From the NCBI GenBank assembly GCA_003056265.1, contig NBVN01000002.1, positions 360,001 to 392,000 of the forward strand: a stretch of DNA of 32,000 nt. Direction: 5' to 3'. Origin of the DNA: Zestosphaera tikiterensis. GTDB lineage: Archaea > Thermoproteota > Thermoprotei_A > Sulfolobales > NBVN01. Positions 429 through 26,820 of the stretch are shown in pieces; the stretch's first letter is position 1, and each line of letters opens with the position of its first letter. The translations under genes and the position numbers were made by a program. A model generated the notes under the pieces. That model had not been told where the DNA came from. It searched no databases and saw only the letters and a list, made by a program, of their open reading frames with translations.

Positions 429-559
429 TTATAAGTTGTTTCTTCTAACGTTTTTATGGTGATGATGTTTAATGTGTGTGGGAGGTAAACCTCAAGCAAA
501 TCAATTAAAGCATATATATATAACACACATAACGCCTCCCACATGAAGTTTTGAGGCCT

Positions 560-728
560 TCTAAAGGTCGATGATAAATGAAGATATCCCATAACCCTAA
601 GTCCCCCGAAGGGGGATAGGGGTAATGGGCCGGAAGCCCGGCCCGGAGGTGAATAAAGAAAGATGTACCTCCAAACCAATGAACCGCCCGAAGGGAGACC
701 CTACCCTTCAGGACGGGGAGGAGGTCAG
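560..728. other. GC-rich multi-hairpin intergenic block, candidate ncRNA or structured 3' UTR of the phosphatase gene
   Basis: Consecutive strong hairpins: TCCCCC-GAA-GGGGGA (602-616), GGGCCGG-AAGC-CCGGCCC (627-644), GGAGGT..ACCTCC (645-672), and an imperfect long stem at 684-717. The block ends in GGGGAGGAGGTCAG (715-728), identical to 6104-6117. Confidence 0.4.
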
Positions 729-1678
729 TCAATAACTTTAACATAGCTTTTAATATCCTTAAGCGAGATTTCAGCTGAGGTGTCTACAAACATATACGCC
801 GCTCGCTTGTTGAAGTATGGCTCGCCAACACGGCTAAATAACGTTACAACTCTACCGTTATGGTTTAGCTTAAATCCTTCATAAGCTGGTTCATGACCTC
901 TAACGACAAATTTAAAGTTATACTTTCCTAAAAACCAATTAGTTACGGAGGAACCGAAAAGATAACCAGCCCCTCTCGGCGATGGTTTTCTATCCACATT
1001 AGTTATGTCTATAGGGTCATTCCACAGGATCTCGGTAAGCAACCTGTTAAATTGATCTTCAGATACCCCCATAAAAAACTCTACTAAAGTAACTTCCCTC
1101 CTATAATTCTCTGTTGGAAGTCCTCCATGCAACGCTACGAAAGTTTTATTTACGTACTGAACTAAAGGCATGCTACTAAACAACTCTTGAAATTTAGCGT
1201 AGATGTTAGTTCCCTTCTCATAGCCGAACAAGAGCCTTAATTCGTGGGGGAAGTCGTGAGGTGATGGGATTAAAAACGGTGGTGGTTCGTGATTACCCCT
1301 AAGTATGGTAACACATTCGGGGAACTCTGCCTTAAGCTCTAAAACAGTTAGTATAGTCTCAAGTTGGTTAGGCCCTCTATCTATATAATCACCCAAGAAA
1401 GTTAGCTCAAGTTCTTTACAACCCTTCATAACTGATACATCAACTTTATTGAGTATCTTCTTTAACGTGTCTAAATCACCGTGAAGATCTCCTATAATTA
1501 AGAATTTACTTCCAGGCTCTTTACCCACCATATAACTTCTTCGTTGCTTATACTCGCTAATTAAAACTTCTTGATATCTTTCAAGAGACTTAACTAAGGC
1601 ATTATAATCGCTTAAAGCCTCTGCTAACCTACTTACCATGAAATCCGCTAACGAGCTCATTACATACCCTATATCCAC
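725..1678 (-). CDS. PPP-family serine/threonine protein phosphatase (metallophosphoesterase)
   Basis: Carries the motifs GDLHGD, GDYIDRG and RGNHE in the canonical order and spacing of PP1/PP2A-type phosphatases. Confidence 0.8.
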   Translation of the reverse strand: MDIGYVMSSLADFMVSRLAEALSDYNALVKSLERYQEVLISEYKQRRSYMVGKEPGSKFLIIGDLHGDLDTLKKILNKVDVSVMKGCKELELTFLGDYIDRGPNQLETILTVLELKAEFPECVTILRGNHEPPPFLIPSPHDFPHELRLLFGYEKGTNIYAKFQELFSSMPLVQYVNKTFVALHGGLPTENYRREVTLVEFFMGVSEDQFNRLLTEILWNDPIDITNVDRKPSPRGAGYLFGSSVTNWFLGKYNFKFVVRGHEPAYEGFKLNHNGRVVTLFSRVGEPYFNKRAAYMFVDTSAEISLKDIKSYVKVID

Positions 1679-5935: not shown

Positions 5936-6074
5936 ATATATAAGTTAACGAGTTAATTTAAATGTTTTGATTTACTTACGTTGAATAAAGCATATGAAGC
6001 AGACGATATGGGTTAGTATCTAAAGTTTTTAATGTTTAACCTTAAGGAACGCTTATAACAATTCATAACTAAGT

Positions 6075-6117
6075 TTACAACTGAAAGCCCGTCTTTTAAG
6101 GGCGGGGAGGAGGTCAG
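6075..6117 (+). repeat. Short repeat F1, copy 2; it supplies the Shine-Dalgarno-like GGAGGAGGT of gene 6120
   Basis: TTACAACTGAAAGCC followed by a hairpin and GGGGAGGAGGTCAG. The hairpin keeps pairing through two C-to-T changes that give G.U pairs on the + strand. The ATG at 6120 follows 2 nt later. Confidence 0.5.
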
Positions 6118-7016: not shown

Positions 7017-7213
7017 GGGTTCTGGCTTCATCGTTTTTAATTACTCACCTTCATCACCCTTATCTTCGCTCCACCCCCGCTTTTCGGAAGCCTAGCTTCA
7101 TTGCCTTAGATTCCCGCATCGCTCCGCCAGACTCCCCCAAGCGAAGGTAGGAGCTTCATCGAGTGTGGTTTCACCCTTACCTCCGTCTCCTCATTGGATC
7201 GTCCACACACCCT
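7017..7213 (-). repeat. GC-rich structured repeat family F2, copy E2 (subfamily a)
   Basis: Begins (on the + strand) GGGTTCTGG immediately after the TAA stop at 7014-7016. Shares CCACCCCCGCTTTT..CTTCATTGCCTTAGA.TCCC with the reverse complement of E1. Confidence 0.55.
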
Positions 7214-9003: not shown

Positions 9004-9082
9004 GACTCCATCACCTCTTACCTGAGTTTGTCATTTATGAGGAAGTAAAATTTTTAAGTTTTTCTTGTTTAATGTTTTTAGT

Positions 9083-9239
9083 GTTGGGTGTGGGCAACCG
9101 TAGCTTGGGATGAGACCCACACCTTCCCGAAGCTGGCGGCGGGAACTGATAGATGATGCACCCTCAGTGAGGGGCTTCAGAGAGGTGATGCAAGCCCTAG
9201 AGGGAGAACCTCCGCCATTCATGGCGGAGAGCCGTCAGC
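9083..9239 (+). ncRNA. Structured ncRNA family F3, copy A (unknown function)
   Basis: A GC-rich 157-nt segment paralogous to 18416-18571. It has a 5' hairpin GGTGTGGG/CCCACACC, a 9-bp closing helix (9132-9140 with 9231-9239) containing one G.U, and internal hairpins. A TATA-like box at 9047-9058 lies about 30 nt upstream. Confidence 0.65.
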
Positions 9240-9374
9240 CTAACCACTCCGTTTAAACATCTTAAAAACGCTTCTTAACTTGAATTTCGGCCTGACTCTT
9301 AGAAAAGAATCACTGCTTTCTTCTTAAAACACTTAACGCATGAAGCCATTTTGCCTTCTATTTAATTCCTCGGT

Positions 9375-9557
9375 ATTCTATCGTAGGGATAGAATGAAAG
9401 AGTGGGTAAGCGTGTGCGGGGGTGCCCGGGGTCGCCCCTAAGAGCCTCCGCAGTGAAGGATGAAGCCAGACGGAGCGGAGGAACAAAACATGAGGGGATG
9501 AAGAAAATAATTAAAAGTATTTGAGAAGGATTAGGAGTATCGTTCAGACCCGAACCC
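9375..9557 (+). repeat. GC-rich structured repeat family F2, copy E3 (subfamily b), candidate sRNA
   Basis: By eye about 85% identical to the reverse complement of 25772-25980. It has a 5' hairpin ATTCTATC-GTAGG-GATAGAAT, and helices GGGGTG/CGCCCC and CCTCCGC/GCGGAGG. It ends ..CAGACCCGAACCC 3 nt before the stop of the convergent radical-SAM gene. Confidence 0.6.
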
Positions 9558-9560
9558 ATT

Positions 9561-10340
9561 CTAAACCATGTCGTCAGGGATTTTCCCAGGGTGCACGCTT
9601 TTAGTGGGTGTTAATCTATACTTCTTTAAGATCTTCTCCACATGTGGGTACATGATGACGTATTCCCAATCTATATCAAGTAGTTCTTCGCTGATTTCAG
9701 CTATCTTTAAAGTGAACTTAGCTATGTTTTCATCGCTACTAAAACCTATCATAGCGGCAACGACTACCTCCCTTCCGGGCTTTAAACCTGCGTTGATTAA
9801 GTTCTCAACCGCCTTAAATTGATATAGAAACGCCGTTGGTTCAGCACCTGTTAGTAAGCTGAACTCCTCTGGTGTCGTTCCTTTGAAGGAGACCCTAACT
9901 AAAACGTTGTTAAATTTAGCTAATTCCTTAGAGAAGGTTTCATCAACTCCTAACAGTATACCATTAGTTTCTAAGATGAAGATATGTTTATGCTCTTCGT
10001 CATTTAACTTAAGCAGATTTAATAGATGTGTTTTTGAAAGGGTTGGTTCGCCGCCGGTCAGCCTTAAGTACTTATATCCCCCCTTAAAAGCTATTCTCAC
10101 TAATCTCTCGTAAGCCGCTTCAGGAGATAAATAAAATCCTAAATCATACCTATCACGAAAATACCAAGCCCAGCAGAACTTACATTTAAGGTTGCAACCT
10201 ATGACATCAGCTGAGGATATTCCACCATACCATCTACCCCCTCTAAACCTGAAGTATTTCCTCTCCTCTATATTTCCTGAATATCTAGTTACTAACTTCT
10301 TAACCTCATCAGATACTTTAACTGGGTCGTAAAGCTTTAC
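9561..10340 (-). CDS. Radical SAM domain protein; the N-terminal region has no canonical start codon
   Basis: The CNLKCKFC (CxxxCxxC) motif at 10173-10196 and ..YLRLTGGEPT.. lie in one open frame running from 10373 to 9561. The first ATG/GTG/TTG in that frame is the GTG at 10100, downstream of the Cys motif. The start is set provisionally at the VKLYDP.. codon (10340). Confidence 0.6.
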   Translation of the reverse strand, partial: VKLYDPVKVSDEVKKLVTRYSGNIEERKYFRFRGGRWYGGISSADVIGCNLKCKFCWAWYFRDRYDLGFYLSPEAAYERLVRIAFKGGYKYLRLTGGEPTLSKTHLLNLLKLNDEEHKHIFILETNGILLGVDETFSKELAKFNNVLVRVSFKGTTPEEFSLLTGAEPTAFLYQFKAVENLINAGLKPGREVVVAAMIGFSSDENIAKFTLKIAEISEELLDIDWEYVIMYPHVEKILKKYRLTPTKSVHPGKIPDDMV

Positions 10341-16358: not shown

Positions 16359-17075
16359 TTACCTCTTCTTAAGACCTGTTCTTCTAGCGGCTATATGACC
16401 TACCTTTCTCCCAGGCGGCGCGTTACGCGATACCGTTGAAGGATGAGACTTCCTTTGATGGATACCGCCACCGAACTTATGGCTTACGGCGTTCATGGCA
16501 ACGCCTCTAACTCTAGGCCATTTATGAGCTTTAACCTTCCATTTATGGTATGCCGCACCAGCCTTCAATAAGGGCTTCTCTATCCTCCCCGCTCCAGCGG
16601 GAACTCCTACGGTTGCTCTAGCCGTGCTTAAAATAGGTCTTTGCTTCTTACTCGGCAGGAGAACTATCGTGTAATTGCCTGACCTACCTAAAACTAAGGC
16701 GTAACTACCTGCTTGCCTTGCTAGCTTACCGCCGTCTCCAGGATTTAACTCTATATTGTATACTTTAGTACCTTCAGGTATCTTACCTAATGGGAGGGTA
16801 TTGCCTACTAAAGGTGGTGCGTCCGGACCTATTGAGACTTTCTGACCTACGTACATACCTTCAGCAGCAGGTATGTAATATTCAACACCGTTTTCTAATT
16901 GAATTCTCGCTAAGGGAACCCAACGCCCCGGATCGTGAATAAACTCCATCACAACACCGGTTAACGTATGTTCTGAAGGCGGGGGATATTTGGCGGGGGC
17001 TGGATGTAGGTGTCCAGGACTTCTAAAGTTTTGACCTCCTCTACCAGCCCTCTGCTGTAACGTTTTCTTACCCAT
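16359..17075 (-). CDS. rpl2: 50S ribosomal protein L2
   Basis: MGKK..QRAGRGG.., ..GDGGKLARQAGSYA.., ..GGG.H.. and the basic C-terminus are unmistakably uL2. A GGTGA Shine-Dalgarno lies 6 nt upstream of the ATG. Confidence 0.95.
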   Translation of the reverse strand: MGKKTLQQRAGRGGQNFRSPGHLHPAPAKYPPPSEHTLTGVVMEFIHDPGRWVPLARIQLENGVEYYIPAAEGMYVGQKVSIGPDAPPLVGNTLPLGKIPEGTKVYNIELNPGDGGKLARQAGSYALVLGRSGNYTIVLLPSKKQRPILSTARATVGVPAGAGRIEKPLLKAGAAYHKWKVKAHKWPRVRGVAMNAVSHKFGGGIHQRKSHPSTVSRNAPPGRKVGHIAARRTGLKKR

Positions 17076-17101
17076 CTCAACTCACCCCATACCTAGCTTC
17101 G

Positions 17102-18223
17102 CTATTTATGGCGGAGTAAATGTTTATAAGTTTTAAGTGCCCAGTATAGGGGTATCTCATCTCTATCTGCCTTGAAACTGCATTTACTGCATATCATTAT
17201 CCTAGTTCTCTTTGTCTTTTTATATACTGTTAGCTTATTCCCACATTTTGGACAAAAAGATGAATATAGCCTTTCTTCAATCCAGTATATCCCATACCAC
17301 GACAATATGTTCTTTAAGCTCCTCGCAAAGCTTAGCAATGTTTTCTGAAGTCTTGTATCACGTAATGAGGTGTGCTCTGGTATATCTATTACTATAAGAG
17401 GTCGTTTGTTATGTCTTTTAGCGATTCTTCTAATCTTCCTGACCACTCTTGCAACACTTTGCTGGATCCACCCTTTATAGGAATATGATAGTGCCCTTCT
17501 TATCAGTACTGGGTAGATGTTAATCTGTCTCTCAGTTAAGCAACCCATATTGTATAACCTGTCTCTAAGCATCATAAGTCTCTTGGTGTAAACCCTTTTG
17601 TTGGATAGGTTCGGCGGTCTAAGCTTTATGGTTTTAATAAGCTTCCCATCCCAGAAATGCACCACAATGCCGTAATCTGAGTTTATGTCTGCTACCACGA
17701 GCAGGGGGTCCTCTGGAACGTCTACAACATTCTTTTTATGAAGAACTATCTGCACTACAAGCTCGTTGTTCCTCTCAAGCACTCTAACATACCTTTCATC
17801 TGGAGACTCTTTAAGTCTCTTCTCAAGCAATCTTAGTGCTCTCTTAGGTATTGGGTACTCCCTAGTTTTATCTAACCTGAGAACGAGCTTTCCATCTCTA
17901 ATATACGCTCCTTTCCTCTCATGAATAGCATCGACAAGCGGTATGTTTAGTATTACTTTATATGGTATGGGAGTTCTTTCAATGTTTTTGAATAGATATA
18001 GGGGATCCCCTTCATCCAGAAGATTATCACGCCAATAGCTCTTAACGGATCTAGTGAGTGTATTAACGACCTCTGAATCAGGATCTATACTGAGTCTCTT
18101 ACACCAGTATATATGAGATGCCAGAACTCTATACTTATAGATAAACTCCTTCACATAGCTATCTAGAGGATATTTAAGTGTGAGAACCCTATAGCCTTCA
18201 AGGGTTCTCAATTTCGAAGACAA
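17102..18223 (-). CDS. TnpB-like protein (IS200/IS605 OrfB family; RuvC-like nuclease with a zinc ribbon)
   Basis: Ordered motifs VVADINSDYG (RuvC-I Asp), LIVIDIPE (RuvC-II Glu), YSSFCPKCG..x..CSKCSFKADRDE (CxxC..CxxC zinc ribbon and RuvC-III Asp), in 373 aa. The putative start is a TTG at 18223 or 18211. Confidence 0.7.
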   Translation of the reverse strand: MSSKLRTLEGYRVLTLKYPLDSYVKEFIYKYRVLASHIYWCKRLSIDPDSEVVNTLTRSVKSYWRDNLLDEGDPLYLFKNIERTPIPYKVILNIPLVDAIHERKGAYIRDGKLVLRLDKTREYPIPKRALRLLEKRLKESPDERYVRVLERNNELVVQIVLHKKNVVDVPEDPLLVVADINSDYGIVVHFWDGKLIKTIKLRPPNLSNKRVYTKRLMMLRDRLYNMGCLTERQINIYPVLIRRALSYSYKGWIQQSVARVVRKIRRIAKRHNKRPLIVIDIPEHTSLRDTRLQKTLLSFARSLKNILSWYGIYWIEERLYSSFCPKCGNKLTVYKKTKRTRIMICSKCSFKADRDEIPLYWALKTYKHLLRHK

Positions 18224-18343
18224 CTACTATCATCTCTTTTCTAGCTTTGTATAGGTTTTCAGCTTTATGCGTGAGCACCTTCGGAATAGTTATGATGTAC
18301 TTACCTTTTCCATGGGACGATATCCTAGCCTTGAAGCACATCA
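18197..18343 (-). CDS. Small ORF (48 aa), possible AbrB/SpoVT-like DNA-binding protein
   Basis: Not in the supplied track because it is under 60 aa. MMCFKARISSHGKGKYIITIPKVLTHKAENLYKARKEMIVVVFEIENP, where the ..YIITIPK.. segment resembles the AbrB swapped-hairpin motif. It overlaps the TnpB-like start by 27 nt. Confidence 0.35.
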
Positions 18344-18382
18344 TAGTTCCATACCTTGTTCCGTGATATTTAGTTCCAAAAA

Positions 18383-18390
18383 TTTATAAA
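18383..18390. promoter_or_regulatory. Palindromic TATA box TTTATAAA between the divergent small ORF/TnpB-like genes and ncRNA F3-B
   Basis: The box lies 26 nt before the conserved start of the RNA (18416) on the + strand and about 40 nt before the ATG at 18343 on the - strand. The equivalent A/T box of copy A is at 9047-9058. Confidence 0.45.
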
Positions 18391-18415
18391 CTTTTTACAA
18401 TTTAATATGTATTGA

Positions 18416-18571
18416 GTTGGGTGTGGGCAACCGTAGCTTGGGATGAGTCCCACACCTTCCCGGAGTTGACGGCGGGAGCTGATGGGTGATGCGCCCTCAG
18501 TGAGGGGCTTCAGAGAAGTGATGGAAGCCCTAGGGGAAGAACCCCTGCCACAAATAACAGGGGCCGTCAGC
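18416..18571 (+). ncRNA. Structured ncRNA family F3, copy B (unknown function)
   Basis: Paralogue of 9083-9239. One hairpin is replaced compensatorily (CCCCTG-CCACAAATAA-CAGGGG at 18542-18563 against TCCGCC-ATTCAT-GGCGGA in copy A). The closing helix 18465-18473 with 18563-18571 has one U.G. No ORF of 60 aa or more crosses it. Confidence 0.65.
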
Positions 18572-18788
18572 TAATTCAATAACAGTTTCTACTATATAAA
18601 CATAACTTTCCATTTCTTTAAAATAAGAGAAATACATTAACTTCTCAATAAATATTAAGTATGGTTTTCATATATAATGTATGTTTTACAGCACCATTAG
18701 CATGATTTAGTCAGTTTAAGAACAGCCATGTTTCTGTAGTAGTAAAGAGCTAAACTTCGTCCTTTAACTATAGTTATTACTACTTAAG

Positions 18789-22286: not shown

Positions 22287-23563
22287 TTGACTACATCATT
22301 AACCGCGAAGATATTAGCTAAGGCATCCAGTAGAGAAAAAGTTGAAGTGGGAGAGCATGTAATCGCCAATGTAGATAGGGTTATGATACATGACGTTACG
22401 GGTCCCATATCTCTGGATGTAATTGAAGAATTAAAAGCTGAGGTATTTGATCCTAGTAAAATCTATATTTTTTAGATCATTACAGTCCTCCACCAACAAT
22501 CTCGGCTTCTAACATACACAGAAGGTTTAGAGAATTCTCTAAAGATAAGAAGATACTAAACTTCTTTGACGTTGGTGAAGGTGTTTGTCACCAGGTAATG
22601 GTGGAAGGTAATGTAAAGCCTGGGGAGGTTGTTGTAGGTGCGGATTCCCATACAGTAACCTATGGAGCATTATCATCATTCGCTACTGGCGTAGGATCAA
22701 CTGAAGCGGCTTACGCTATGGTCACGGGTAAGTTATGGTTTAAAGTGCCTGAACCTCTGTATATTCGAGTGGATGGTCGTTTACCATATTATATATGCGG
22801 CAAGGATGTGATATTAAAAATCTTAAGTGAAATAGGTGAGGAGGGAGCTAATTACAAAAGCATGGAATTCTTCGGCTCAGGACTTAAATCTTTAAGCATG
22901 AGTGATAGGTTAACCATAGCAAACATGAGTGTGGAGGGAGGCGCTAAAAACGCTATTTTTCCCTTAGATGAAATCACCTTAAGTTACTTTAAGGATTTAG
23001 GCATGCATATCGATATTGTGGATTTAGGTTTCCTTAAACCAATCGAACCCCAAGAGCAGAAGCCTGATATTGTAGTAGATCTAAGCTCATTAGAACCTAT
23101 GGTTTCAAAACCCCATAGTCCGGCTAACGCCGTCAGCGTTCGTGAAGTTGAAGGCATTAAAGTAGATATGGCCTTTATAGGTTCCTGCACTAACGGTAGG
23201 TATGAAGACTTATATCAAGCAGCAAAGATATTAAAGAGTAGGAAGGTCTCAAGAGACGTAAGGTTAATAATCACACCAGCTTCTAAGAAAGTCTTAATGA
23301 AGGCATTAAAGGAAGACTTAATAAGGATTTTAGTAGAAGCTGGCGCTATAGTAACACCACCAAGCTGTGGTGCCTGTTTCGGAGGCCACTTAGGTGTGGC
23401 AGGCGATAACGAGAACGTCATATCCAGTACTAACAGAAATTTCAAAGGTAGGATGGGATCCCCTAAAGCAAACATATATCTTGCTTCCCCACTTACGGTA
23501 GCTGCTTCAGCAGTCGAAGGTAGCATAACAGACCCTAGAAAATATTTAGGTGAAATCGCATGA
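22287..23563 (+). pseudogene. Aconitase-family dehydratase large subunit (LeuC/HacA-like) interrupted by a -1 frameshift at a T6 run
   Basis: The N-terminal piece (22287-22475) ends ..KIYIF-TAG. The -1 frame continues LDHYSPPP..GEGVCHQV..GADSHT.. and runs on to 23563. The joined sequence aligns colinearly with the LeuC/HacA N-terminus (..DH..PP...GI.HQ...DSHT). Confidence 0.8.
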
Positions 23564-24899: not shown

Positions 24900-25570
24900 A
24901 ACGAAAGTCCAGAATGATGGTTGACCTTAAAGTTTTAGAAGGTAAATCCGTAATAAAAGGACAAATTCTGTAATTTCTGTAGTTATTATGTAACGGATGG
25001 GATCTAGAGGATATTTTTGAGAGAATATCTACATCTTTAAAAGAGAATGTATTAGCAACTAAGGTTTTTAAGAGAGGAGATTATCGTTAAAAGCCTAAAC
25101 ATCAACGAATGGAAACACGCCTTGAATTACTACTACTGCCCTTAAAGAAAATGGATATGAGATAACCTCAATCTTGGAACTTAAACTAGATATGAATAAT
25201 GAAGAAATAGCGAAAGTTAGCTATGAAAGAGTCGAGAACTTTAATAACCTTTTGAAGAAGATTCCGGAAATAGCGCTATTAAAATATAACATTACATTTC
25301 AGGGATATTTTTAGTAAGTTTTACTAAGGATACTGCCGTTAAATCTCCTGCACTCCTGTACGTAGTTAAAAGAACGTTCTCATCATTAATGCGATAGAGG
25401 ATCTATACAATAAGTATCGTGATCAAAAAGAGAACGGAAAGGTACTAGCATCACATCAACGCTTTTCTTTCAATGGCAATGAGAGTCTTACTTATTGGAG
25501 ATTTAGACATTGTTAAAAACGTAAATGCGGAATTAAACTATATATAAAAAATATAATATTTTAATGGATT
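24900..25570 (+). pseudogene. Heavily decayed copy of the DUF433/DUF5615 toxin-antitoxin module
   Basis: Colinear nucleotide similarity (by eye about 65-70%) to 26110-26742, for example GTTGACCTTAAAG..GGTAAATCCGTAATAAAAGGA against GTTGACCCCAAG..GGTAAACCCGTAATAAAAGGA. No open frame survives. Confidence 0.6.
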
Positions 25571-25615
25571 TAGTGAGCCCGCGGGGACTCGAACCCCGGA
25601 CCTCCGCCGTGTGAG
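25571..25615 (-). repeat. Partial duplicate of the 3' half of tRNA-Val (att-like remnant)
   Basis: 43 of 45 nt are identical to 26743-26787, covering the anticodon loop through the 3' end. Similarity stops exactly inside the anticodon loop. Confidence 0.85.
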
Positions 25616-25771
25616 AACGTAATGATATTCGCAAACTCGTATTATTGGTATTTATGTAATCCAAAGCGATAACCATAGCCGATATCAACAGTGATATTAT
25701 TTGTCTTACGATATGCATGTCTCGGTTAGAATAATCTATAAAGACCTTTGTTATAATAGTGTCTAGGGGGA

Positions 25772-25980
25772 GGGTTCGGGTCTGAACGTTACTTCTAATT
25801 ACTTTTAGATACTTTTAATTGTTTTCTTCATCCCTTCATTTTTTGTTCCCCCGCTCCGTCTGGCTTCATCCTTCACTGCGGAGGCTCTTAGGAGTGACCC
25901 AAGCACCCCCGCACACGCTTCAAATCTTCCCCAATCTCTACGTTATTTTCCTTAGGGATCCACCTACCCTACAGGTGGAT
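25772..25980 (-). repeat. GC-rich structured repeat family F2, copy E4 (subfamily b)
   Basis: Reverse-complement paralogue of 9375-9557. Its 5' hairpin has different arms but the same loop (ATCCACCT-GTAGGGT-AGGTGGAT). Its helices GGGGTG/CACTCC and CCTCCGC/GCGGGGG carry G.U pairs only in this orientation. Confidence 0.6.
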
Positions 25981-26099: not shown

Positions 26100-26327
26100 T
26101 TGACCGAATTCGAGAATAGAATAGTAGTTGACCCCAAGATTATGGGGGGTAAACCCGTAATAAAAGGAACAAGGGTTCCCGTGTATTTTATCCTAGAGTT
26201 ATTATCTAATGGTTGGAGTATAGATGATATTTTAAGAGAATATCCGCATCTCTCAAGGGAAGACGTGTTAGCAGCTATTAAGTACGCTGCCAAGGTCTTG
26301 AGGGAGGAAGTTATTGTCAAAGCCTAG
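26100..26327 (+). CDS. DUF433 family protein (putative antitoxin)
   Basis: ..IVVDPKIMGGKPVIKGTRVPVYFILELLSNGWSIDDILREYPHLSREDVLAAIKYA.. matches the DUF433 consensus (dp.i.gGkP.i.GTRi.V..il..l..G.s.eeil..YP.Lt.edi.aAl.ya). Confidence 0.8.
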   Translation: MTEFENRIVVDPKIMGGKPVIKGTRVPVYFILELLSNGWSIDDILREYPHLSREDVLAAIKYAAKVLREEVIVKA

Positions 26328-26668
26328 ACTTCTAGCAGATTAAAATATACCTCGAACTGTTATTATTACACTTAGAGAAAAAGGATATGACATAGCCTCG
26401 GTTCGGGAGCTTAGTCCAGGTATGAGCGACGAGGAAGTAGTAGAGCTAGCTATAAAAGAGTCGAGAATTTAATAACGTTTGACAAAGACTTTGGAAGAAT
26501 AGCACTCTTAAAACCTAGAGTTCCAGGAATAATTTTACTAAGAATACCACCATTAAATCCCCTATACATAGCCGAAAGAATACTCTCAACATTGAAAGAA
26601 TAGAAAATCCATACAATAAGTTAATCATAGTCAGAAAGAAAACAATAAAAATAGTCATATTACGTTAA
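26314..26668 (+). pseudogene. DUF5615 (PIN-like, putative toxin) pseudogene
   Basis: ..RLLAD*NIPRTVIITLREKGYDIASVRELSPGMSDEEVVELAIKESR / ILITFDKDFGRIALLKPRVPGIILLRIPP.. / ..LIIVRKKTIKI. There is one in-frame TAA (26341-26343) and at least two frameshifts relative to the DUF5615 consensus. Confidence 0.7.
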
Positions 26669-26742
26669 CAATTATCCTAGGCGATGATGAGACGCCTTAC
26701 CCATTGCAGGTATTACTGAAGATGAAACTACGATATTAATTT

Positions 26743-26820
26743 TGGTGGGCCCGCGGGGACTCGAACCCCGGACCTCCGCCGTGTGAGGGCGGCGTCCTAA
26801 CCAGGCTAGACGACGGGCCC
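26743..26820 (-). tRNA. tRNA-Val (anticodon CAC), with CCA encoded
   Basis: A manual cloverleaf fold works: acceptor GGGCCCG/CGGGCCC, D stem GUCU/GGAC, anticodon stem CCGCC/GGCGG with loop CUCACAC, T stem CGGGG/CCCCG with loop UUCGAGU, discriminator A and CCA. There is no intron. Confidence 0.9.

Follow-up and report, generated by a model that had tools for sequence, protein, structure and literature searches.

F3, a GC-rich structured RNA encoded twice in the window (the whole 32,000-nucleotide stretch of Zestosphaera tikiterensis DNA that was analysed), is very probably the omega RNA, i.e., the guide RNA encoded at the right end, of a TnpB-only insertion sequence that is of the IS200/IS605 type and occurs in hyperthermophilic Thermoproteota. 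The kind of RNA is known; new are the inverted tnpB and the palindromic promoter between both genes. The preliminary description of this DNA regarded F3 as a free-standing family of two copies, which is contradicted by its occurrence beside tnpB, as the probable guide-RNA module of a TnpB element, at approximately 75 loci. The assignment identifies a conspicuous GC-rich RNA family of hot-spring archaea as a probable transposon guide RNA, extends the HgcC/omega-RNA class past the reach of Rfam thresholds, and documents tnpB and its guide RNA as divergent genes with one shared palindromic promoter.

Copies A (9083–9238) and B (18416–18570), both on the + strand, represent one RNA in duplicate, each with a TATA box approximately 30 nt upstream. 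The paralogy of the two segments, recognized in the preliminary description, is borne out by an ungapped 171-nt repeat (9047–9217 versus 18380–18550) with 84% identity and by a MAFFT alignment, in which the similarity sets in within the A/T-rich box and ends directly after GCCGTCAGC, i.e., right behind the 3′ helix, as had been stated. The first 47 nt of the copies contain a single difference. A covariance model constructed from 68 relatives recognizes both copies (Table 1) and, with filters off, no third full copy in the window, and both copies fold better than dinucleotide shuffles (z = −2.9 each). Exact-pattern scans of conserved F3 stretches against genome, metagenome, and viral collections yielded no matches. 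A coding explanation was dropped because the sole ORF across copy A, a minus-strand frame already noted in the preliminary description, is missing from copy B, and because the substitutions represent helix covariation; a tRNA or tmRNA identity was also dismissed.

Table 1. Positions of the F3 copies, of the element around copy B, and of associated features in the window.
Feature	Position	Strand	Basis and remarks
Complete element of copy B	17086–18570	RNA on +	From left end to last right-end base
TCAC, candidate transposon-adjacent motif (TAM)	17082–17085	+	Just outside left end; L071/L065 pair, L063 empty site, boundary survey
Left end of element	17086–17120	+	Subterminal hairpin 17097–17116 (CUUCGC-UAUUUAU-GGCGGAG); overlaps tnpB stop; covariance-model hairpin hit; boundary in relatives
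tnpB, gene for 373-aa TnpB/Cas12f-fold RNA-guided nuclease	17102–18223	−	Pfam Cas12f1-like_TNB; AF2 model; invariant acidic residues
Small ORF (48 aa) between promoter and tnpB	18198–18344	−	26-nt overlap with tnpB start; conserved at the protein level in relatives (MGLVAVFRAKLSSHGGGRLIIYIPK...)
Near-palindromic BRE/TATA promoter between RNA gene and small ORF–tnpB	18377–18400		TATA 18383–18389; family consensus
F3 copy B, omega-RNA scaffold	18414–18570	+	5′ GAGUUGGG to last right-end base ...GCCGUCAG; covariance model 130.2 bits, family alignment, covariation, boundary survey
Predicted guide segment, copy B	18571–18590	+	Flank CTAATTCAATAACAGTTTCT, read through from scaffold; predicted length
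Left part of mini-element A (putative)	9011–9058	+	TCAC 9011–9014, decayed left-end hairpin remnant, TATA-like box 9047–9058; by eye
F3 copy A, omega-RNA scaffold of gene-less mini-element	9081–9238	+	Covariance model 149.5 bits; weak full-length HgcC match, 20 bits
Predicted guide segment, copy A	9239–9258	+	CCTAACCACTCCGTTTAAAC; predicted length, reasoning as for copy B
CUGA-N3-4-RUGAUG motif, resembling box D′/C′ K-loop	9145–9160 (copy A), 18478–18493 (copy B)	+	Invariant columns in 68-sequence alignment

Copy B is arranged head-to-head with tnpB, which lies on the opposite strand and starts 192 nt from the RNA. The AF2 model of the encoded protein (pLDDT 84) matches cryo-EM structures of Cas12f and TnpB over its full length (E 1e-11 to 1e-7), and 16 homologues all share the acidic residues found at the RuvC positions (D179, D280, and D355). 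This TnpB has Asp where the second RuvC residue would usually be Glu. The protein database holds 85 homologues, several of which are named Vulcanisaeta and many of which are located on contigs of 1.3–1.8 kb, as is the case with multi-copy elements. Genomic neighbourhoods of the gene were retrieved first, and then 95 loci via the protein alignment. At approximately 75 loci, tnpB is accompanied by an F3 homologue in opposite orientation, with the 5′ end of the RNA approximately 195 nt upstream of the tnpB start. The carriers are genomes and metagenomes of hot-spring archaea, including Vulcanisaeta, Ignisphaera, and Desulfurococcaceae; in the group with approximately 55–78% identity, no locus with upstream DNA included was seen without an F3 match.

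The RNA and tnpB belong to one element, the ends of which are sharply defined. Similarity among insertions stops exactly after ...GCCGTCAG on the right, where the flanks beyond are unrelated, and the abrupt end after ...GAGCCGTCAG, followed by locus-specific sequence, is common to all insertions. On the left side, read in the tnpB sense, a hairpin at the 3′ end of tnpB (CCCCGCC-TTAAAA-GGCGAGG) is followed by 10–24 nt, by ...GTGA, and then by diverging flanks. On the RNA-sense strand, with a slash for the junction, the left end is TCAC/C...GCCTCGCC-TTTTAA-GGCGGGG (hairpin CCTCGCC-TTTTAA-GGCGGGG) and the right end is CCCTCGCC-CTTCAG-GGCGGGG-AGCCGTCAG/. The two subterminal hairpins thus have the same sense on the RNA strand, and the hairpin matches of the covariance model fall there too. 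A survey of TCAC across boundaries is partly circular, the boundary having been located via GTGA, and filled and empty sites were relied on instead. The filled site L071 and the empty site L065 have identical flanks, over 52 nt on the left, up to and including TCAC, and over 40 nt on the right; L071 has an additional 1,480 nt inserted between the two flanks, and no sequence is duplicated. In a second empty site (L063), TCAC is directly followed by the right-flank sequence of the L101/L102 insertion, the left junction of which was not recovered. The element is therefore inserted 3′ of TCAC without target duplication, and the scaffold ends on the last base of the element. The flank would serve as the guide, and because the flank downstream of the RNA follows TCAC in the empty site, the arrangement obeys the logic of a TnpB guide and its TAM. 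Judging from known TnpB systems, the guide would comprise 16–20 nt.

IS200/IS605-type elements have neither inverted repeats nor target duplications. The F3 element likewise shows insertion 3′ of a tetranucleotide, no target duplication, no terminal inverted repeats, and subterminal hairpins of the same sense at both ends of one strand. The preliminary description had named a simple MITE, bounded by inverted repeats and target duplications, as the finding that would speak against an RNA gene family; the copies are indeed parts of a mobile element, but inverted repeats and target duplications are lacking. No Y1 transposase domain was found among the window ORFs scanned against Pfam, and a Y1 TnpA is presumably supplied to this element in trans, as for IS1341-type elements. 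In locus L038 (1496–1661, 1469–1520), one insertion is nested in another: a second F3/right end lies within the left end of another element, and the tnpB reading frame is prolonged into the inverted RNA sequence.

The secondary structure was evaluated with an alignment of 68 distinct copies; most helices were obtained from RNAalifold, and the structure tested was drawn by hand. Briefly, F3 consists of a 5′ hairpin with an inner helix, a CCCCG/CGGGG hairpin, a two-helix central domain, and a terminal hairpin, and the loop of the CCCCG/CGGGG hairpin (GCUGRCGG) pairs with the 3′ tail (CCGYCAGC) to form a pseudoknot. Over 49 pairs, 95.4% of cells are paired and compensatory changes occur in 25 pairs; the pseudoknot helix is 97.8% paired. 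None of 500 shuffles reaches the observed values, and slid partners give 42–49% pairing. Covariation is present in seven helices across the 157 nt. All hairpins listed in the preliminary description were recovered, the 5′ hairpin, the long-range helix GCUGRCGGC/GCCGYCAGC, and the terminal hairpin covary in relatives, and the additional copies keep the helices. The helix described there as closing the RNA is supported by covariation, but actually contributes one arm to a pseudoknot that also involves the hairpin CCCG...CGGG. G.U cells (285) outnumber A.C cells (74), and pairing is higher on the given strand than on the complement (89.0%); thus the + strand of the window is the RNA strand, as the preliminary description had proposed. 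L005 has a C.A combination on the + strand at one pair of the pseudoknot.

The right-end hairpin of copy A is of the UUCA type typical of the family (CCUCCGCC-AUUCAU-GGCGGAGG), and that of copy B and its alleles has an unrelated sequence with pairing kept. The compensatory stem replacement seen previously between the copies is thus real and represents a swap of the subterminal right-end hairpin of the transposon in copy B; unrelated sequence with retained pairing suggests selection on the RNA and not on transposase recognition. A K-turn had been suspected in the loop containing GTGATG; the best K-turn-like motif is instead CUGA-N3-4-RUGAUG (Table 1), which by its sequence fits a D′/C′ K-loop. 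Rfam C/D models score at most 12 bits and a terminal C/D pair is absent, which speaks against membership in the C/D-box sRNAs.

At curated/gathering thresholds, tRNA-Val is the only Rfam match in the window; F3 reaches no family above threshold, the nearest being HgcC. In permissive mode, the HgcC model (RF00062, gathering threshold 50 bits) gives a weak full-length match to copy A at 20.0 bits and matches F3 relatives at 22.1 and 23.6 bits, and copy B shows no match to HgcC at E ≤ 10. With scores of 20–24 bits against 50, F3 lies outside HgcC by the criterion of Rfam. HgcC RNAs were discovered as high-GC islands in AT-rich hyperthermophiles and later seen as 3′-end transcripts of IS1341-type tnpB with a common UUCA hairpin resembling the right end (PMC4615843, PMC4247193). 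Since HgcC is associated with tnpB, gene context became the key question for F3. HgcC-type transcripts now go by the name of TnpB omega RNAs. HgcC and sot0042 (RF02656) are similar to F3 in that the loop of the first hairpin (CUGAC-like) pairs with the 3′ tail (GUCAG), and further in the terminal UUCA-type hairpin, the tail ...GAG(G)(A/C)(G/C)GUCAG, the hyperthermophilic hosts, and the full-length alignment to the HgcC model, whereas F3 has an additional hairpin at its 5′ end and differs in its central domain. Furthermore, most described HgcC RNAs overlap tnpB in the sense orientation, unlike F3; one HgcC RNA of P. furiosus was reported to be antisense to a transposase gene (PMC4247193) and may be a precedent for the inverted order.

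F3 shares with the omega RNAs (reRNAs) of IS200/IS605 elements, such as ISDra2, Geobacillus ISGst, and Sulfolobus SisTnpB1, a structured and pseudoknotted scaffold that stops at the right end and is followed by a flank-derived guide (predicted for F3), as well as the linked TnpB with a RuvC triad; the elements agree in the left-end TAM, the absence of target duplication, and gene-less mini-elements that bear the RNA. In F3, accordingly, linkage to tnpB within one element, coincidence of the scaffold end with the right-end boundary, and conservation of the pseudoknotted scaffold are all found. By contrast with the canonical omega RNA, F3 is a separate gene on the opposite strand with its own BRE/TATA and neither overlaps nor follows the 3′ end of tnpB, which itself overlaps the left end, and a conserved small ORF precedes tnpB. 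According to a survey of the diversity of TnpB, the gene terminates no more than 250 bp from the end of the transposon in most of the cases examined, and the omega RNA is placed downstream (PMC10691335). No description of an inverted order of tnpB and omega RNA was found in the searchable TnpB literature, a limited library.

The possibility that tnpB is itself followed by a canonical omega RNA was considered and dropped. The interval between the tnpB stop and the start of the gene for ribosomal protein L2 is just 26 nt, such that a canonical omega RNA cannot fit, and this stretch, which belongs to the left end, scores with the covariance model merely as a hairpin, on the strand opposite tnpB. 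TCAC is located 6 nt from the L2 start codon (17073–17075, −). With the TAM so close upstream, L2 would be expressed via read-through from tnpB or from a promoter within the degraded left end. In the region 17073–17120, the loop of the left-end hairpin reads ATAAATA on the L2 strand.

The same-strand position at or overlapping the 3′ end of tnpB is absent from the clade of the window and occurs in Thermofilales. In a Thermofilales genome, the TnpBs of which are approximately 35% identical, the F3 covariance model matches downstream of tnpB on the same strand, and the relatives concerned (L018, L020, L022, L024, L026) have a homologous TnpB and similar RNA helices, with the RNA downstream of tnpB on the same strand, whereas F3 lies upstream on the opposite strand. 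The Thermofilales RNA begins with GAGUUGG, contains the same helices, the central domain, AGAA, and the terminal hairpin, and its conservation stops sharply at ...GGGCGCGCGC. In its pseudoknot, the loop GCGCGCGC pairs with the 3′ tail GCGCGCGC, the sequence being wholly different and the complementarity kept. A homologous RNA at the canonical omega-RNA site, with a pseudoknot replaced in sequence and still complementary, supports both the identification of F3 and the pseudoknot. The canonical order in Thermofilales further implies that the head-to-head order of the clade of the window probably arose by rearrangement.

The preliminary description had predicted from the sequence that a promoter of its own accompanies the RNA. 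The TATA-like boxes of copy A (9050–9056) and copy B (18383–18389) correspond to the TTATAA conserved in the family and lie at the family-conserved distance, which bears out this prediction. In the family, TTATAA is the center of a palindrome upstream of the RNA (GCAAAAAGC-TTATAA-GCTTTTTGC), and the TATA is fixed at −33 to −27 from GUUGGG; by this spacing, archaeal transcription would begin right where the conserved scaffold does. The small ORF on the other side of the promoter encodes 48–50 aa across the family (consensus MGLVAVFRAKLSSHGGGRLIIYIPKSLQPKLREYYEKGVEFVVHLYTED) and has no Pfam match; it might regulate the promoter or be coupled to tnpB in translation.

Taken together, the + strand of the element reads as the TAM TCAC, the left-end hairpin, tnpB (antisense), the small ORF (antisense), the palindromic BRE/TATA, the 157-nt scaffold, the right-end hairpin to ...GCCGTCAG, and the flank. 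Transcription would start approximately 27 nt past the TATA box, at GAGUUGGG, and proceed through the scaffold into the flank, yielding the scaffold with a guide of approximately 16–20 nt, which TnpB would bind. After excision, the TnpB–RNA complex would recognize TCAC and the flank that matches the guide, i.e., the empty donor site, and cut it, and recombination with a sister copy would restore the element. For copy A, TnpB would be supplied in trans. The F3 RNA would accordingly be a separate, divergently transcribed gene and would not be excised from the tail of the tnpB mRNA; if it is made as predicted, its maturation is independent of TnpB cutting its own mRNA, which bears on the origin of separate guide-RNA genes. 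As a practical aspect, the element offers a compact nuclease of 373 aa, probably thermostable, with a 157-nt scaffold and TCAC as a candidate TAM.

A more far-reaching model can be put forward only tentatively, and we consider it doubtful as a whole: the guide RNA may be an independent transcription unit, one palindromic BRE/TATA may fire both ways, in one direction giving the omega RNA its mature 5′ end directly and in the other yielding the mRNA of the small ORF and tnpB, and CUGA-N3-4-RUGAUG may be a genuine K-loop that recruits host L7Ae into the nuclease complex. Literature searches for L7Ae with TnpB returned nothing relevant. Were this model true, a transposon guide-RNA system would require neither self-processing of tnpB mRNA nor TnpB alone for RNA folding, and would be a natural step toward stand-alone guide-RNA genes, as in CRISPR systems.

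Judged from its sequence, copy A (about 9011–9238) is a gene-less mini-element that keeps the promoter, the scaffold, and the right end. The weakest assignment is that of its left part, made by eye against the intact mini-element of L004 and L005, which reads TCAC-CTGTTTGAGGCTCCGCCTTTTAAGGTGGGG-TAAATGTTTTTAAG. In these two loci, which derive from other strains, the right flank of copy B bears a mini-element composed of TCAC, an intact left-end hairpin, the promoter, the RNA, and the right end; tnpB is absent and a different gene lies on the left. Relative to window positions 17102–18400, a mini-element and a gene for a P-loop (KaiC/RadA-like) protein replace tnpB and L2 at L004 7700–7973 and L005 7400–7756. 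This strain polymorphism implies a rearrangement with a breakpoint inside the element. Gene-less IS605-type elements that keep omega RNAs and depend on TnpB in trans are known (PMC10055086). Copy A, and likewise the allele of copy B in L004/L005, resembles PATEs (palindrome-associated transposable elements) in having a left and a right end without a protein gene and with the guide-RNA module kept, whereas the two differ from PATEs in the retained dedicated promoter and, for copy A, in the decayed left-end hairpin. As the left-end hairpins of the window copies are degraded and the right-end hairpin of copy B is replaced, these copies may have lost transposition.

Such a loss raises the alternative that the window copies were immobilized and exapted, with TnpB and two RNAs of fixed guide serving a host function in RNA-guided regulation or defence, like bacterial TldR-type derivatives. 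Four metagenome assemblies have, at this locus, the same exchange of the TnpA-type hairpin of copy B for an unrelated pairing hairpin, which is indicative of selection on the RNA; the element directly adjoins the start codon of L2, and the near-identity of the copies over their first 47 nt points the same way. Nevertheless, exaptation is unlikely: TldRs are nuclease-dead, having lost RuvC residues and element ends, whereas here the triad is intact and invariant and both ends are present, albeit degraded in the window copies; moreover, the guides are mere insertion flanks and the family overall is clearly mobile. The hairpin of copy B also bears on the possibility that conservation acts on the DNA alone, i.e., that F3 is a structured right end for transposase recognition without a functional RNA. 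The end hairpins of IS200/IS605 elements are recognized as single-stranded DNA, and the terminal hairpin is common to the left and right ends; however, copy B retains a pairing hairpin without the transposase-type sequence. A transposase needs just a subterminal hairpin and approximately 10–20 nt, against the 157 nt with seven covarying helices observed here, the BRE/TATA is conserved at a fixed distance from the 5′ end of the RNA, and the homologous module of the sister clade sits at the omega-RNA position, all of which make this explanation highly improbable.

Finally, F3 might be a free-standing cellular structured RNA, for instance one that binds L7Ae, located beside tnpB by chance and unrelated to mobile elements. 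This reading would account for its own promoter, the strong structure, the invariant CUGA...UGAUG motif, and the lack of a tnpB adjoining copy A. It is scarcely tenable in view of the head-to-head linkage in approximately 75 loci and the coincidence of the RNA end with the insertion boundary at filled and empty sites, and copy A itself bears left-end remnants and TCAC. The omega-RNA reading is consequently preferred over these alternatives.

Several other repeats are present in the window. At 553–741 (+), a second, classical HgcC/sot0042-like RNA scores 31.5 and 29.9 bits, both below threshold, and ends in CCCUUCAGG...GGGAGGAGGUCAG, and two fragments (386–430 and 6074–6117) have GCCTCGCCCTTAAGGGCGGGGAGGAGGTCAG in common; this RNA and the fragments probably stem from another family of TnpB transposons, as remnants or mini-elements, with no tnpB adjacent. 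A GC-rich repeat of approximately 160 nt with arms that are 89% complementary and the motifs GUGAAGGAUGAAGCC and GGGGAUGAAG is found at 9402–9564 (+), 160 nt downstream of F3 copy A, at 25767–25929 (−), and also at L004 195–334; it has no Rfam match and no linkage to TnpB loci, and is probably another small-RNA family. A third GC-rich repeat forms an inverted pair (2040–2170 and 7030–7160) with a 50-nt core of 86% identity and AAUGAAG/GAUGAAG motifs. Approximately 700 nt are duplicated between 24911–25615 and 26118–26787 with a spacing of approximately 1.2 kb and 72–96% identity; the former ends in a 47-nt copy of the 3′ half of tRNA-Val (25569–25615), the tRNA-Val gene itself being at 26743–26820 (−), which looks like an integration or duplication at a tRNA gene. 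The ORF for the aconitase large subunit (22598–23563, +) encodes 321 aa, compared with 320 aa in Logan assembly L006, whereas three further assemblies covering this locus give 425 aa, a difference that could reflect truncation, a frameshift, or an alternative start.
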